DNA of 32,000 nt. It comes from Labilithrix sp. (lineage in GTDB: Bacteria; Myxococcota_A; Polyangia; Polyangiales; Polyangiaceae). The position numbers and the translations under genes were made by a program. The notes below the pieces were generated by a model, which made no database searches, was not told the DNA's origin, and saw nothing but the letters and a program-made list of their open reading frames with translations. Where the stretch lies: NCBI GenBank assembly GCA_019637195.1, contig JAHBWA010000020.1, positions 50,032 through 82,031 on the forward strand. The letters run 5' to 3'. Every line of letters begins with the position of its first letter. The first letter of the stretch is position 1. Positions 22,520-32,000 of the stretch are shown here, piece after piece.

Positions 22520-23380
22520 GTGATAATTTATCGATCGATCTCGGTTCCCGAGTTGTGGGGCATCTTCATTCTCCCGATTTCTGGACTGCTTGTAGTGGGC
22601 GGCGGCGCATGTGACGGCAGCGGCGCACGCGGTGGTCCGCGCCGCGCGCGACCGGACCAGATCCCCGAACAGGTGGCGATCAACGAAGGAACGTCGACCT
22701 ACGGATTCTTCATCTCTCGCGACCGGAGGCCGCTCGACGTAGGCGCGTTCCGTGTCGCAAAGCGGCCGGTCACGGTCGCTCAGTACAACGAGTGCGTCGC
22801 CGCTGGAGCTTGCTCCGGCGCCGTTGAGAACGCGTGCATCGGCGTCGAGGACGGGCTGCGTGATGCGCTTGCCGGTCGGACCCAGGGCAGCGACGCAGAC
22901 GAAGCGATACCGATGACCTGTGTCGGGGTGAGGCAAGCCCAGGCCTACTGCGGCTGGGTCGGCGGCGCGTTGCCGACGATCTCGCAGTGGTTGACCGCCG
23001 CTCGCGGGCGCGAGGTCGCGCGATTTTCGTGGGGCAATACGCTTCCGCGTTGCGAGCAGCATCCCGCAGTCACCCATTCGGTGATCGGCGGACCATGCGC
23101 CGAATCCCAAGACCAGACCTTTGCCGTCGGGCGCCACGTCGCCGGCACATCGCCGCTTGGTGTCGAAGACGTCTTGCTGGCTTCAGGTGAGCTTATTGCG
23201 CCGTCCTCTGACTCGCCGGTCTCTGCGTGTGCGGCACCGTTTCCGGCCTGTGTTGCCTACGGCGTTCGGCCTGGGGCGATCGACAGCGTCGAGGCACTCG
23301 ACGGCGTCGACACCGAAGCCGGTGAGCGGAGCCGACAAGCCTATGCCTTCCGGTGCGCCTTCCCCGGAGACTCCAAATGA
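22520..23380 (+). CDS. FGE-sulfatase (SUMF1/EgtB/PvdO-type) domain protein
   Basis: GTG at 22520. A hydrophobic N-terminus ends GGGAC. Motifs FRVAKRPVTVAQYNECV, MTCVGVRQAQAYCGWVGGALPTISQWLTAARG, FSWGN, GVEDVL and a terminal YAFRCAF, typical of this fold. The stop overlaps the next start (ATGA). Confidence 0.75.
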   Translation: MIIYRSISVPELWGIFILPISGLLVVGGGACDGSGARGGPRRARPDQIPEQVAINEGTSTYGFFISRDRRPLDVGAFRVAKRPVTVAQYNECVAAGACSGAVENACIGVEDGLRDALAGRTQGSDADEAIPMTCVGVRQAQAYCGWVGGALPTISQWLTAARGREVARFSWGNTLPRCEQHPAVTHSVIGGPCAESQDQTFAVGRHVAGTSPLGVEDVLLASGELIAPSSDSPVSACAAPFPACVAYGVRPGAIDSVEALDGVDTEAGERSRQAYAFRCAFPGDSK

Positions 23381-29097: not shown

Positions 29098-32000
29098 ATG
29101 AGAACTCGCCGGATGAAGGAATGCGCGGGCCCCGTATCGGTGCTCACCCTCGTAGCGTTCATTTCGTCGTTCCTCCCTAGACCTGCGCTCGCCAACGACC
29201 GTGCGCAGGAGCCGCTAGACGTGGAGTGGGCGCAGGTGCAGCCTTCGTCCTGGCACGCCCTCGGTCAGCAGGGCGAATCGCCGGCGCCGTTACCCTTCGA
29301 CGCATTGGGAGCCGTGCGTACCGAGGGCGTGAGCCCGCTCGGCCCGCTCGAGCATGGCAGCGCAGGCTCGAGCGGGAACGGAAGCCTTACGTGGGATGAC
29401 GTCCTCAAGGCCATAACCGAGGAGCGGCGCAGCGGCGTTCTGGCCGTTGGCGGCACGAGTCACCCGTCGACGGTTGTACCCGCGAGCCCCAACCCCGGCC
29501 CTTCGCAGGGAGCCGGAGTAGGCGCGAAGCGGGCTCCGGCTGGCCCCCAGCTCTCGCTGCCGCAGGGGGCGAGCAAGCTTCGAGGGATGGGCGAGAGCTT
29601 CTCTGCGGAACTCTCTACCGGCGTCGCACGCTACCAAGTCGCCTTCGAACTACCCACGGCACGCGGCGGTGCACAGCCGTCGCTCGGACTCTCGTACAGC
29701 TCCGGCGGCGGCCACGGCATCGCGGGCGTCGGCTGGGGAGTCGGAGCATCAGCGATCTCGCGTCAACTCGATCGAGGAGGACCAAAGTATCGCGATCCGG
29801 CGCCGGGGGGACCGTGGCATCCCGAGCAGGATAGGTTTGTTTCGGGGACAGAAGAACTCGTACCCATCTGCCTCGTTTCCGGGGCGACCTGCGCGGGGGC
29901 GCAAGCGGGCGAGGTGATGCCCGAGTGGGCATCGGGCTGGCAGTACTTCCGCGCACGTGTTGAAGGCTCGTTCCTTCGCTACTTCTGGTCACCGGACCAT
30001 CGAACCTGGCGGGTTCAAAGCAAGAACGGCGTCTCGATGGAGTTGGGCGTCCCGCTTGACGGCTCTGACGATCCAGGCGCTCTCGAGGTCGATCCGTCGG
30101 CGCCTTCGCGGATCTACGCGTGGCACGTTGTTCGGACGTACGACGCCATGGGGCAAGCGAATCCGTCAGGAGCGCAGGTGCCGCGTCCATTGAACCTGGT
30201 GCAGTACAGGTATCAGAGCGTTGGTGGGACGACTTATCTCACCGATATCTTCGATACACCGCCCGCGGCGAACGCAGCAGACGCGCCTCTCGCCAGCTAT
30301 GCCCACCATACCCGTTTGCGCTACGAGCACAGGCCGGACGTGACGACATCGTATCGTCGCGGCTGGGCGGCGCAGGTGACGCAGCGCCTTCAAGGCGTGG
30401 ACGTCACGAGCTACGATTTCGAGCCGGGCGACGGCGGGCGCCGGCTGCTTCGCCGGTACCATCTCGCGTACGATCCCGACACACACGTCTCGTTGCTCCT
30501 CAGCGTTCAGATGGAGGGCCGCTGCGTGCAGCCGGTCGGAGAGAGCGGTCCGTCCGGCCTCCTCCCGCCGACGAGCTGTCCACGTTTTCCGGCGATGACC
30601 TTCGGGTACCAGCACGTCGCGCCGTTCCGCATCGACGGGACGTCCGCCAGTGCTGACCTGCCGGGATACGAAGGCTTTGACGAGCGGCTCCGCACGATGA
30701 GCGCGAGCCCGCCACACTCGATCCACGAGACGCTGACCGAGCTTGCGGACATCGACTCCGACGGGCTCCCGGACATCGTCGTGACGGACCCGGCGCAGTA
30801 CGGTGGCAATCACGGCATCTTCTTCAACCGGCGGGCCGGGTTTGCGGCGGTCCAGACGATGGCCGTGGAAGGTGTCCTCGGCGCCGACGCCAACGTCATC
30901 CGATTCAACAATCCGAATCTCTCGAGCCACGACGTGGACGGTGACGGTACGGTCAACCTCCTTCACATGCCGCTGGTGAAGACGTATTCGGTCTACACGC
31001 CGGCGCGGAAGCCCGACGGAACCTGGGCATGGCAGGGGCGCGTCGTGACCACGGCGTCGCAGCAGGACCCGAAGATCGACTTCGCCGGTCGCCACGCCGA
31101 CCTCCGCCTCATGGATGTGAACGCTGACGGCCTCGTTGACGTGGTCTACACGGCCGCTACGGAGGTCCAAACGTTCCTCTCCCTCGGCCGCTATCCGGGC
31201 GGCGACGGTCAATACGGCCATGCTTCGCGGACCGGCGCGAGCACTGCAGACGTCTCGAACGAGCCGCTCACGAGCTGCATCCCGTGGAGCGCACTCCCGG
31301 TTCGCTTCAGCGATCCGGACGTCCGCATCGCCGACATGAACGGCGACGGCTTCCCCGACATCGTGCGTGTCCGTCACGGCGACATCCGCTACTGGCCGGG
31401 GCGTGGGAACGGCTTCTGGGGCACGGGAGATCCGGCAGGGTGCCCGGCCGGGAGCTTCGGTCAGGACCAGCACGTCCCCATGAACGACAGTCCGGTCTCC
31501 GCGAGCTTCGGCGACGACCCGCTCCTCCTCGACGATGTCAACGGAGACGGTCTCGCCGACCTCCTCCGGGTCCGGTTCAATGCGATCGACATCCACCTAA
31601 ACGTCGACGGCACGGGGTGGACCGACCGCCACGTCATCGAGAACGCACCGCCGAACTCCTCGATCGCGAATCGCGTTCGCATCACCGACATCGACGGCTC
31701 CGGCACGCCCGACATCTTGTGGGGCGATGGGTTCGCCTACAAATACATCGACCTCGCGGGCGGTCTCCGCCCATGGCTCCTTACGAAGATCGACAACGGC
31801 CTCGGAGGGACCACGGACCTGGAGTACGCGACGGCGGCGGAACAGATGCTCGCCGCCGAGGCAGCGAGCGACCCGTGGACGAGCAAGGCCCCTACCGTCG
31901 CCCACGTGCTCGCGCGCGTGACTCGCCGTGACAACCTGGAGCGCGTCGGGCGGGCGGCAGGGACGTACGTCACCGAGTACACTTATCGGAATCCGGTCTA
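29098..32000 (+). CDS. Secreted SpvB/TcdB N-terminal plus FG-GAP propeller protein (TcB/Rhs-type toxin shell component), 3'-truncated by the window
   Basis: ATG at 29098 with signal peptide (VSVLTLVAFISSFLPRPALA). SpvB-type LSLPQGASKLRGMGESFSAELSTGVARYQVAFELP. TcdB-mid-N-like IYAWHVVRTYDAMGQ..VQYRY. Six DxDxDG-type FG-GAP/VCBS motifs (DIDSDGLPDIV, DVDGDGTVNLL, DVNADGLVDVV, DMNGDGFPDIV, DVNGDGLADLL, DIDGSGTPDIL), then LLTKIDNGLGGTTDLEY. The frame is open to base 32000, checked by hand at several points. It is not in the ORF track because it is open-ended. Confidence 0.85.
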   Translation, partial: MRTRRMKECAGPVSVLTLVAFISSFLPRPALANDRAQEPLDVEWAQVQPSSWHALGQQGESPAPLPFDALGAVRTEGVSPLGPLEHGSAGSSGNGSLTWDDVLKAITEERRSGVLAVGGTSHPSTVVPASPNPGPSQGAGVGAKRAPAGPQLSLPQGASKLRGMGESFSAELSTGVARYQVAFELPTARGGAQPSLGLSYSSGGGHGIAGVGWGVGASAISRQLDRGGPKYRDPAPGGPWHPEQDRFVSGTEELVPICLVSGATCAGAQAGEVMPEWASGWQYFRARVEGSFLRYFWSPDHRTWRVQSKNGVSMELGVPLDGSDDPGALEVDPSAPSRIYAWHVVRTYDAMGQANPSGAQVPRPLNLVQYRYQSVGGTTYLTDIFDTPPAANAADAPLASYAHHTRLRYEHRPDVTTSYRRGWAAQVTQRLQGVDVTSYDFEPGDGGRRLLRRYHLAYDPDTHVSLLLSVQMEGRCVQPVGESGPSGLLPPTSCPRFPAMTFGYQHVAPFRIDGTSASADLPGYEGFDERLRTMSASPPHSIHETLTELADIDSDGLPDIVVTDPAQYGGNHGIFFNRRAGFAAVQTMAVEGVLGADANVIRFNNPNLSSHDVDGDGTVNLLHMPLVKTYSVYTPARKPDGTWAWQGRVVTTASQQDPKIDFAGRHADLRLMDVNADGLVDVVYTAATEVQTFLSLGRYPGGDGQYGHASRTGASTADVSNEPLTSCIPWSALPVRFSDPDVRIADMNGDGFPDIVRVRHGDIRYWPGRGNGFWGTGDPAGCPAGSFGQDQHVPMNDSPVSASFGDDPLLLDDVNGDGLADLLRVRFNAIDIHLNVDGTGWTDRHVIENAPPNSSIANRVRITDIDGSGTPDILWGDGFAYKYIDLAGGLRPWLLTKIDNGLGGTTDLEYATAAEQMLAAEAASDPWTSKAPTVAHVLARVTRRDNLERVGRAAGTYVTEYTYRNPV

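Follow-up and report, generated by a model that had tools for sequence, protein, structure and literature searches.

Tc (ABC) toxins, of interest both as insecticides and as devices for programmable protein injection, are known from Photorhabdus, Xenorhabdus, Yersinia and Serratia (TcdA1/TcdB2-TccC3, XptA, YenTc and SepABC). Canonical Tc toxins reside in the cytoplasm until lysis sets them free. Their holotoxin is a 5:1:1 complex with a pentamer of A, and a pH or receptor trigger turns its prepore into a pore. At the C-terminus of the TcA subunit, antiparallel pore-forming helices joined by loops are followed by a C-terminal TcB-binding domain (PMC11435725). Every Tc toxin characterised has eukaryotic cells as its target (PMC7861908; PMC11435725), and none of the Tc loci examined by Song et al. 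2021 was found to encode an immunity protein, in keeping with eukaryotic targets (PMC7861908). Described here is a module of three consecutive plus-strand genes in a 32,000-nucleotide stretch of a Labilithrix sp. contig (JAHBWA010000020.1, positions 50,032–82,031; hereafter the window). Beginning at window position 22520, they encode an FGE-like lipoprotein, a giant lipoprotein that we refer to as A-like, and a TcB-TcC fusion toxin (BC). On balance, the module is probably a Sec-exported, lipid-anchored polymorphic toxin system of the Tc/ABC type, in which the 1,881-residue lipoprotein would be a highly divergent A subunit; this reading draws on its predicted structure and on a strict A-then-BC gene order.

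Signal-peptide-bearing polymorphic toxins are known from myxobacteria themselves. Rhs4 and Rhs5 of Myxococcus xanthus are large proteins of ~4,000 residues that are T6SS-independent (T6SS, type VI secretion system) and take part in kin discrimination, with no A-like partner mentioned in the passages that treat them (PMC10433427). For the SitA toxins, which are small lipoproteins, the sections on delivery give TraAB outer-membrane exchange as the route (PMC5562445). Set against the module by these descriptions, both are similar to it in being myxobacterial signal-peptide polymorphic toxins with immunity genes; the DNA that encodes them is mobile or strain-specific, their entry route is given there as unknown, and the SitA lipoprotein is itself the toxin, whereas the lipoprotein of the module is the putative translocator (PMC10433427; PMC5562445).

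The BC half of the module is of a known kind. The A half represents a new, large, unannotated family that resembles TcA in predicted structure only, and it differs from TcA in size, N-terminal architecture, export and lipid anchoring.

The BC fusion and its gene partners

The BC gene runs past the end of the window. An exact-protein look-up found two public contigs that carry the A-like gene, one of which (L001) is identical to the window over the shared 9,872 nt and contains the full BC gene (6985–14766), encoding a natural single-chain TcB-TcC fusion of 2,593 residues. Its Pfam domains are SpvB (PF03534, E = 4e-19), FG-GAP_3 (PF13517, E = 1e-15) and TcdB_toxin_midN (PF12256, E = 1e-24), and its similarity to Tc toxins is direct at the level of sequence, the best matches in the PDB being the engineered TcdB2-TccC3 fusion (E = 8e-36), YenB (2e-25), TcdB1, TccC2 and YenC2. 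Present further along the chain are YD repeats, an Rhs-associated core (Rhs_assc_core, TIGR03696, E = 5e-17, residues 2176–2261) and the autoprotease motifs TPDP...IDPTGLDP (DPxGL), after which comes a tip of 332 residues. The RHS core, the DPxGL autoprotease and the C-terminal toxin region that the initial annotation had expected beyond the window are thus all present in the L001 continuation. Like Tc toxins, BC combines the TcB-type N-terminal module (SpvB, FG-GAP propeller, TcdB_midN) with the TcC-type Rhs/YD shell, core autoprotease and hypervariable tip, the latter part being read on L001. By its matches to TcdB and TccC proteins, its Rhs core, its DPxGL motifs and its tip, BC is a natural single-chain capsule. 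At its N-terminus is a stretch that reads as a Sec signal peptide (MKECAGPVSVLTLVAFISSFLPRPALA followed by ND, with the boundary at ALA/ND).

Gene order was mapped by tblastn of the module across all loci, 40 of which are non-redundant and extend at least 3 kb beyond the A-like gene. A BC fusion lies directly 3′ of the A-like gene, on the same strand, in 36 of the 40, and the gene tables of individual loci agree; two of the four exceptions hold tandem A-like copies. In ~23 loci of the close subfamily the FGE-like gene lies directly 5′ of the A-like gene. The partnership of giant and BC genes reported for this one genome therefore recurs elsewhere, in the A-B-C order of Tc toxins, and its conservation rules out chance co-location of the three genes. 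Within the window, the TGA of the FGE-like open reading frame (ORF) at 23378–23380 overlaps the ATG of the A-like ORF at 23377, and the ORF coordinates show the ATGA overlap described at 23377–23380 to be real. Possible BC starts are at 29050, 29098 and 29113; the 75-nt gap given initially holds with the start at 29098 and becomes 90 nt with 29113, the start picked by the gene caller on the identical contig L001.

The gene partner distinguishes the module from the 'TcdB/TcaC' class of Zhang et al. 2012 (Biol Direct 7:18; PMC3482391). In the passages on that class, its members start with a signal peptide, continue with SpvB, an integrin-like propeller and RHS, and end in a variable toxin, with WHH, HNH and colicin-type tips, SUKH-type immunity and delta-proteobacteria among the hosts. 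BC has the same signal peptide-SpvB-propeller-RHS-variable-toxin architecture, and its sister loci have the same kinds of tip and SUKH-type immunity genes. Those passages list TcdB as the sole other component and name no A-type partner, unlike the module, in which a conserved partner with a core of TcA-like predicted structure accompanies BC in 36 of the 40 loci, often together with an FGE-fold lipoprotein.

The A-like family is large. A word-index search returned 22 homologues, all from metagenomes or metagenome-assembled genomes (MAGs; Labilithrix sp., Polyangiaceae) and conserved over the first ~1,566 residues, and an exhaustive hidden Markov model search returned 999 representatives of 50%-identity clusters at E ≤ 1e-3, including 523 at E ≤ 1e-30. 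Most members are 1,450–1,650 residues long. A scan of one genome per GTDB species, which uses peptide patterns and is biased towards close relatives, gave 56 loci, all in Myxococcota MAGs (Polyangiales, Polyangiaceae, Sandaracinaceae or 'Myxococcales') and none from a cultured strain; unlike the hosts of Tc toxins, those of the A-like family are so far uncultured Myxococcota only. In NCBI records its members go by 'IPT/TIG domain-containing protein' or 'hypothetical protein', and full-text literature searches found no description of the family. If the module is indeed of the Tc type, ~1,000 unannotated protein clusters would join a known functional class.

Distant relatives of 2,100–2,870 residues have only the last 140–200 residues in common with the A-like protein and still directly precede a BC gene. 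No A-BC fusion protein was found among 23 long family members, whose extra length consists of inserts or C-terminal appendages. Word-index homologue searches with the A-like C-terminus of locus L061 and with the BC tip returned nothing. Tandem A-like paralogues precede a single BC gene in L007 (10001–19439), in L027 and L037 (one contig), in L033 and in L039, reminiscent of canonical tc loci in which TcA genes are multiple or split. Natural BC fusions of ~2,600 residues also occur on plasmids of Rhodococcus (L073, 10447–25029) and Burkholderia (L071, 11932–26397), followed by canonical TcA genes of 3,207 and 3,475 residues, respectively; there TcA lies 3′ of BC, the reverse of the order in classical tc loci and in the myxobacterial module.

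Predicted fold of the A-like lipoprotein

The N-terminus of the A-like protein (MSKRILAFVATLALAAATAC) is its top hydropathy segment and ends in a Cys (Cys20) that is kept in 91% of the 22 homologues. In Myxococcus, a Lys at position +2 retains lipoproteins in the inner membrane; the residue at +2 is here Gly, which suggests an outer-membrane location. The protein has 14 conserved Cys. Its sole Pfam match is to the TIG domain, found among the homologues of the word-index search only in the three closest (P0001–P0003); an NCBIfam scan added nothing, and a PDB sequence search gave no match at E ≤ 1.

The protein was modelled in two pieces with AlphaFold2, template-free and from family sequences only. 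Residues 21–900 are predicted to adopt a mixed α/β structure (predicted local distance difference test (pLDDT) 85.6, predicted template modelling score (pTM) 0.90) for which a Foldseek search of the PDB gave a best E of 0.42 and no solved relative, making this confidently modelled region of 880 residues a target for structural work. The second model, of residues 880–1881, is good for ~880–1660, with blocks mostly at 70–90 pLDDT; the last ~220–230 residues of the protein are below 50. As assigned by DSSP, the modelled core comprises helices of 56, 41, 61 and 29 residues, then a β-rich domain and then TIG. Helices and β-rich domain follow one another in the order described for the TcA C-terminus (PMC11435725).

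All 15 best Foldseek matches of the core in the PDB are TcA subunits (E = 8.7e-10 to 4.3e-5, 535–732 aligned columns). They include XptA1 (6rw8, E = 8.7e-10), XptA2, TcdA1 as prepore and as pore, YenA2, TcaA-TcaB and TcdA4; after them the list falls to ~5e-4, with proteins that share the TIG domain only. In its predicted structure, the core thus has the TcA-type fold of a helical pore-forming domain running into a TcB-binding domain. This lends support to the A-like component proposed in the initial annotation, and the giant protein does not model as an unrelated adhesin or enzyme. The 'unknown fold' assigned to it there remains apt for the N-terminal 880 residues and is superseded for the C-terminal core.

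The best conserved of nine blocks compared along the A-like protein are residues 1261–1340 (65% mean identity) and 1431–1566 (56%). The C-terminal domain of the core is thus well conserved and is also the sole part common to the distant relatives that precede BC genes, as would fit a BC-docking interface. Differences from TcA are considerable, with an A-like core of ~1,550 residues as against ~2,500 residues for TcA, and an N-terminal half of unmatched fold.

Several observations weigh against an A subunit. The match to TcA comes from one predicted model, whose quality is moderate (~80 pLDDT in the part that matches), and it was obtained without residue ranges, the shares of the helices and of the β domain in it being indistinguishable. 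Foldseek template modelling (TM) scores are ~0.22 and the root mean square deviation is ~25 Å, as might be expected when one elongated protomer is modelled by itself. Further domains follow the putative TcB-binding domain, with which canonical TcA ends. None of the Pfam domains TcA_TcB_BD, Neuraminidase, ABC_toxin_N and VRP1 is found in the A-like protein or in 13 family members at E ≤ 10. Canonical TcAs from plasmid tc loci served as controls (SepA of Serratia, a TcaB-like protein of Bacillus thuringiensis, and proteins of Pantoea, Vibrio, Rhodococcus and Burkholderia), and the three that were scanned match the Pfam TcA models at E values of 1e-44 to 1e-51. Single-sequence and profile searches of the PDB were empty (13-sequence profile of residues 900–1570, with Pfam also empty at E ≤ 10), and hhalign comparison of a 13- or 139-sequence A-like profile with four or six canonical TcA C-termini gave a probability below 1%. 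Four large distant relatives, of the 2,100–2,870-residue class, have no TcA Pfam domains and so provide no transitive link.

By sequence, the A-like protein is therefore not recognisable as a TcA subunit; since no sequence-level homology was found, its relationship to TcA rests on predicted structure and genomic context. The initial statement that the locus has no canonical TcA holds for sequence, by Pfam, PDB and hhalign alike, and does not hold at the level of predicted structure. The loops between the long helices of the window protein are not clearly hydrophobic, and we therefore name no membrane-inserting tip.

The absence of sequence homology to TcA would also suit a giant lipoprotein that has no channel and serves as a surface tether or adhesin, anchoring and presenting BC or binding targets, while the Rhs toxin enters otherwise, as proposed for signal-peptide Rhs/WapA-type toxins. 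We consider this rather unlikely, as the Foldseek matches are specific to TcA over ~700 columns and include no adhesin or coiled-coil protein, and the strict A-then-BC order mirrors that of tc loci. A lipid anchor, a TIG domain, and variable appendages and inserts such as CBM_3 and CBM_4_9 are typical of surface binders, and in the passage of a myxobacterial review that deals with large signal-peptide Rhs proteins these are placed, as a proposal, on the cell surface (PMC10433427); it is nevertheless the helical-to-β C-terminal core, and not the putative binding appendages, that is best conserved. Inserts occur at fixed points of the A-like core, with CBM_3 in P0015 and ~450–480 residues in P0083, P0102 and P0107, and C-terminal appendages of the family reach ~3,100 residues (P0149). 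From their sequences, these inserts and appendages look like swappable binding modules.

Toxin tips, proposed mechanism and the FGE-like lipoprotein

The 21 BC tips extracted from the loci are mutually unrelated (14% mean column identity). Tip types include PT-HINT (three tips), Tox-HNH-HHH, Ntox47 and WHH/Colicin-DNase, and most tips have no Pfam match. Located 3′ of the tips in sister loci are ORFs of the SMI1_KNR4/SUKH_6 (two), Imm70 and DUF7674 families. With variable nuclease tips and SUKH or Imm70 genes in sister loci, the family behaves as a polymorphic toxin-immunity system. The tip of the window lineage has no Pfam match; in three related tips the first half is hydrophobic and rich in Gly/Ala, and the motif HExxH...R..GP.Y is invariant, by which the window-lineage tip is inferred to be a metallopeptidase-like toxin. 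Also to be set against the proposed toxin system is that the 370–450 nt available 3′ of the BC gene in this lineage contain no clear immunity ORF, so that, of the toxin and immunity genes predicted downstream, only the toxin is borne out, by the 332-residue tip. In the 72%-identical locus L011, a gene for a 116-residue lipoprotein lies 3′ of BC.

The module departs from Tc toxins in its route out of the cell. All three of its proteins carry export signals, two of them lipoprotein signals and that of BC a Sec signal. The signal-less cytoplasmic subunits, lysis-type release (type X secretion system, T10SS) and absence of immunity genes that mark Tc toxins do not apply to it. Holin and lysozyme genes lie next to sepA, whereas holin, endolysin and chitinase genes are all absent from the window. 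Sister loci of the module carry immunity genes, as against none in the Tc loci examined by Song et al. 2021 (PMC7861908).

Because nuclease tips come with immunity genes, the target of the module is most likely to be other bacteria, as prey or competitors, rather than insects. A eukaryotic target is possible. It is highly improbable, however, that the module is a Tc toxin aimed at amoebae, nematodes, fungi or insects whose A subunit has merely diverged and whose immunity genes protect the producer only. The SUKH and Imm70 genes that follow sister tips, and export by Sec and lipoprotein signals with no lysis cassette, argue otherwise, and HNH, WHH, colicin DNase, Ntox47 and PT-HINT tips are interbacterial polymorphic toxin types in the tip descriptions of Zhang et al. 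(PMC3482391). What speaks for such a eukaryotic toxin is the precedent of the characterised Tc toxins, the toxicity of nuclease tips to any cell, and the short downstream sequence of the window lineage, in which no immunity gene is recognised.

In the mechanism that we propose for a Tc-type module, BC is, by homology, a capsule of SpvB, a propeller gate and an Rhs/YD shell, whose aspartyl autoprotease would cut off and enclose the ~330-residue toxin. In the window lineage, this payload would consist of a glycine-rich hydrophobic segment followed by the metallopeptidase-like HExxH motif. The A-like protein would oligomerise as TcA does, with its predicted antiparallel pore-forming helices leading into the TcB-binding domain. 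Docking the BC propeller through its conserved C-terminal domain, it would conduct the unfolded toxin through a helical channel across the target membrane. Its N-terminal 880 residues may replace the shell, neuraminidase-like and receptor-binding domains of canonical TcA, and its variable inserts and C-terminal appendages (here TIG and the tail) may act as targeting domains. The export signals on all three proteins point to assembly in the envelope (periplasm, outer membrane or cell surface), with probable anchoring to the outer membrane or to vesicles. Delivery might occur, speculatively, by surface exposure, vesicles or membrane exchange.

The same export signals are compatible with a giant lipoprotein that, with or without the FGE-like protein, moves the 280-kDa BC out of the periplasm or folds it and has no role in target entry. 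SpvB and the propeller are treated as export-pathway determinants in the relevant part of Zhang et al. 2012 (PMC3482391), and many loci carry extra conserved accessory genes, such as acc575. Such an export or assembly factor is nonetheless improbable, since the predicted fold matches a Tc translocating subunit and no secretin or usher, and since the inserts and appendages vary like receptor-binding modules, as expected of target recognition and not of housekeeping export.

If the A-subunit reading is correct, the design space of translocators would widen to smaller, lipid-anchored, Sec-exported forms coupled to nuclease toxins with immunity genes, and the large T6SS-independent signal-peptide Rhs toxins of myxobacterial kin discrimination or predation would gain a testable candidate entry route. 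A bolder proposal, which we hold only tentatively, is that the module is the first antibacterial Tc-type injectosome. In it, lipid-anchored TcA-like translocators of a large family so far confined to Myxococcota and Sec-exported BC would come together in the outer membrane of the producer or on vesicles and inject polymorphic nuclease or peptidase toxins through the envelope of rival or prey bacteria; the N-terminal 880 residues would be a new shell and receptor module, with maturation or priming of the complex falling to the FGE-fold lipoprotein. Were this so, Tc toxins would extend from anti-eukaryote exotoxins to contact- or vesicle-dependent interbacterial weapons, and the missing delivery partner of T6SS-independent SpvB-type Rhs toxins would be supplied.

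The FGE-like protein matches the FGE/SUMF1 fold family (PF03781, which includes the C-terminal domains of EgtB and SenA) with E = 5.8e-18, and NCBIfam and Pfam scans also match it weakly to SenA and EgtB. Unlike FGE/SUMF1, it is a Cys-rich lipoprotein that aligns with profile positions 2–168 of 255 only, and the conserved partner of its gene is the A-like gene and not a sulfatase. The lipobox Cys31 is kept in 21 of 21 homologues, and of ten other Cys, nine are kept in at least 90% of these and one in 71%, suggesting a disulfide-rich extracytoplasmic protein. The fully conserved pair C237-x6-C244 may form a disulfide. Its spacing is unlike that of FGE. Loci L003, L014, L021 and L025 lack the gene, as does the distant subfamily.

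The initial annotation suggested that this protein may modify one of its partners. In the A-like protein, the motif C199-M-A-Q-R (C 100%, A 95%, R 77%) formally fits the FGE recognition pattern, giving a hint, at the level of a motif, of modification at C199; it lies inside a predicted helix, and C199 is one of the 14 conserved Cys, all of which may be disulfide-paired. The FGE-like lipoprotein is an accessory, possibly a maturation or binding factor. Another client considered for it was a PF00884 'Sulfatase' protein encoded 18 kb away (2218–4197, plus strand). This protein lacks a C/S-x-P/A-x-R motif, its long N-terminus is polytopic in the membrane, and by its sequence it looks like a membrane-bound member of the alkaline-phosphatase superfamily and not an FGE-dependent sulfatase. 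It was ruled out as a client because of the missing motif and because it is the toxin module with which the FGE-like gene travels.

A further conserved accessory, acc575, of 450–600 residues, occurs in ~14 related loci and is absent from the window; where present, it precedes the FGE-like gene or separates the A-like gene from BC. It has no significant Pfam or PDB match.

Composition, origin and surroundings of the module

The GC content at third codon positions (GC3) is 0.724 in the FGE-like gene, 0.780 in the A-like gene and 0.797 in the BC gene, which is far from the range seen in the twelve genes at 283–21032 (0.903–0.958). Overall GC is 0.66 for the module and ~0.70 for the window. Third positions richer in A/T than those of the genes to the left, as noted initially, are therefore borne out by computed values, and the module differs in GC3 from the rest of the window. 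The codons listed at that stage for the gene at 23377 were roughly correct; the gene in fact begins with atg agt aag cga atc cta gca ttt gtc gcg acg ctg gca ttg gcc gca gcc act gca tgt.

Homology between the window and the related locus L011 starts at 22628 and covers the module only, with none upstream. Because GC3 differs from that of the neighbours and this homology is confined to the module, horizontal acquisition, as proposed in the initial annotation, is judged likely on sequence grounds, and the donor was probably a Polyangia lineage of lower GC3. In most related MAG loci the GC3 of the module is not below that of its flanks, the anomaly being limited to this genome and to L032. No sigma-70-like promoter, flanking repeats, integrase or true tRNA was found at the island boundary in the window. 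ARAGORN calls a tRNA-Arg(gcg) at 22916–23011 (plus strand), which is probably a false positive, being 96 nt long and inside the FGE-like ORF. Features of the module are collected in Table 1.

Table 1. Coordinates of the module, its parts and the flanking intergenic stretch in the window, with the positions of acc575 in related loci
Feature	Coordinates	Strand	Remarks
Intergenic stretch left of the module	21540–22519		Between the last high-GC3 native gene (21079–21531, minus strand) and the module; likely the left boundary of the acquired segment and upstream control region
FGE-sulfatase-fold lipoprotein, 286 aa	22520–23380	+	PF03781 match; frequent, not obligatory, module accessory
A-like giant lipoprotein, 1,881 aa	23377–29022	+	Stop at 29020–29022
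Lipoprotein signal peptide of the A-like protein, MSKRILAFVATLALAAATAC	23377–23436	+	From sequence, Cys20 conservation and hydropathy
A-like N-terminal 880-residue region	23437–26076	+	Confident mixed α/β model without solved relative
A-like conserved core, residues ~880–1570	26014–28086	+	Long antiparallel helices, then β-rich C-terminal domain; TcA-like model
IPT/TIG domain after the A-like core	28138–28329	+	PF01833, E = 2.8e-8, residues 1588–1651; lineage-specific
A-like C-terminal tail, ~230 aa, variable appendage	28330–29022	+	pLDDT < 50, no family match
5′ 2.9 kb of the 2,593-aa TcB-TcC (BC) fusion with Sec signal	29113–32000	+	Alternative start 29098; runs past the window end
acc575 in related loci	L009 14107–15834; L007 7580–9193; L012, L016, L018, L026, L034, L040, L046, L050, L056, L058		

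Mobile elements adjoin some related loci. A serine recombinase gene lies next to the sister module in L003 (7670–9025), and in L009 (18976–21577) an rve/AAA_22 insertion element adjoins a truncated BC gene, a HigB-like toxin-antitoxin pair also being close by.

The gene immediately left of the module in the window (21079–21531, minus strand) encodes a small secreted protein of 150 residues with a long Ser/Gly run and a Cys-rich C-terminus; owing to its GC3 of 0.955, it is taken to be native and the last native gene before the module. Other left-hand genes encode an H+-pyrophosphatase, two PGA_cap proteins, a trypsin-like protease, a response regulator and an EEP-family nuclease/phosphatase. 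A stretch of ~3 kb at 7500–10500 has a GC content of 0.64–0.67 and no ORF with the GC3 > 0.9 signature of its neighbours. It matches no Rfam family and its longest ORFs have no Pfam match; degraded genes are one possible explanation, and a second foreign or non-coding stretch is another. The two PGA_cap genes are divergent paralogues facing away from each other (10534–11868, minus strand, and 11931–13151, plus strand). By the stop-codon end of the minus-strand copy are short GC-rich tandem repeats with periods of 28, 21 and 14 nt (10410–10520).

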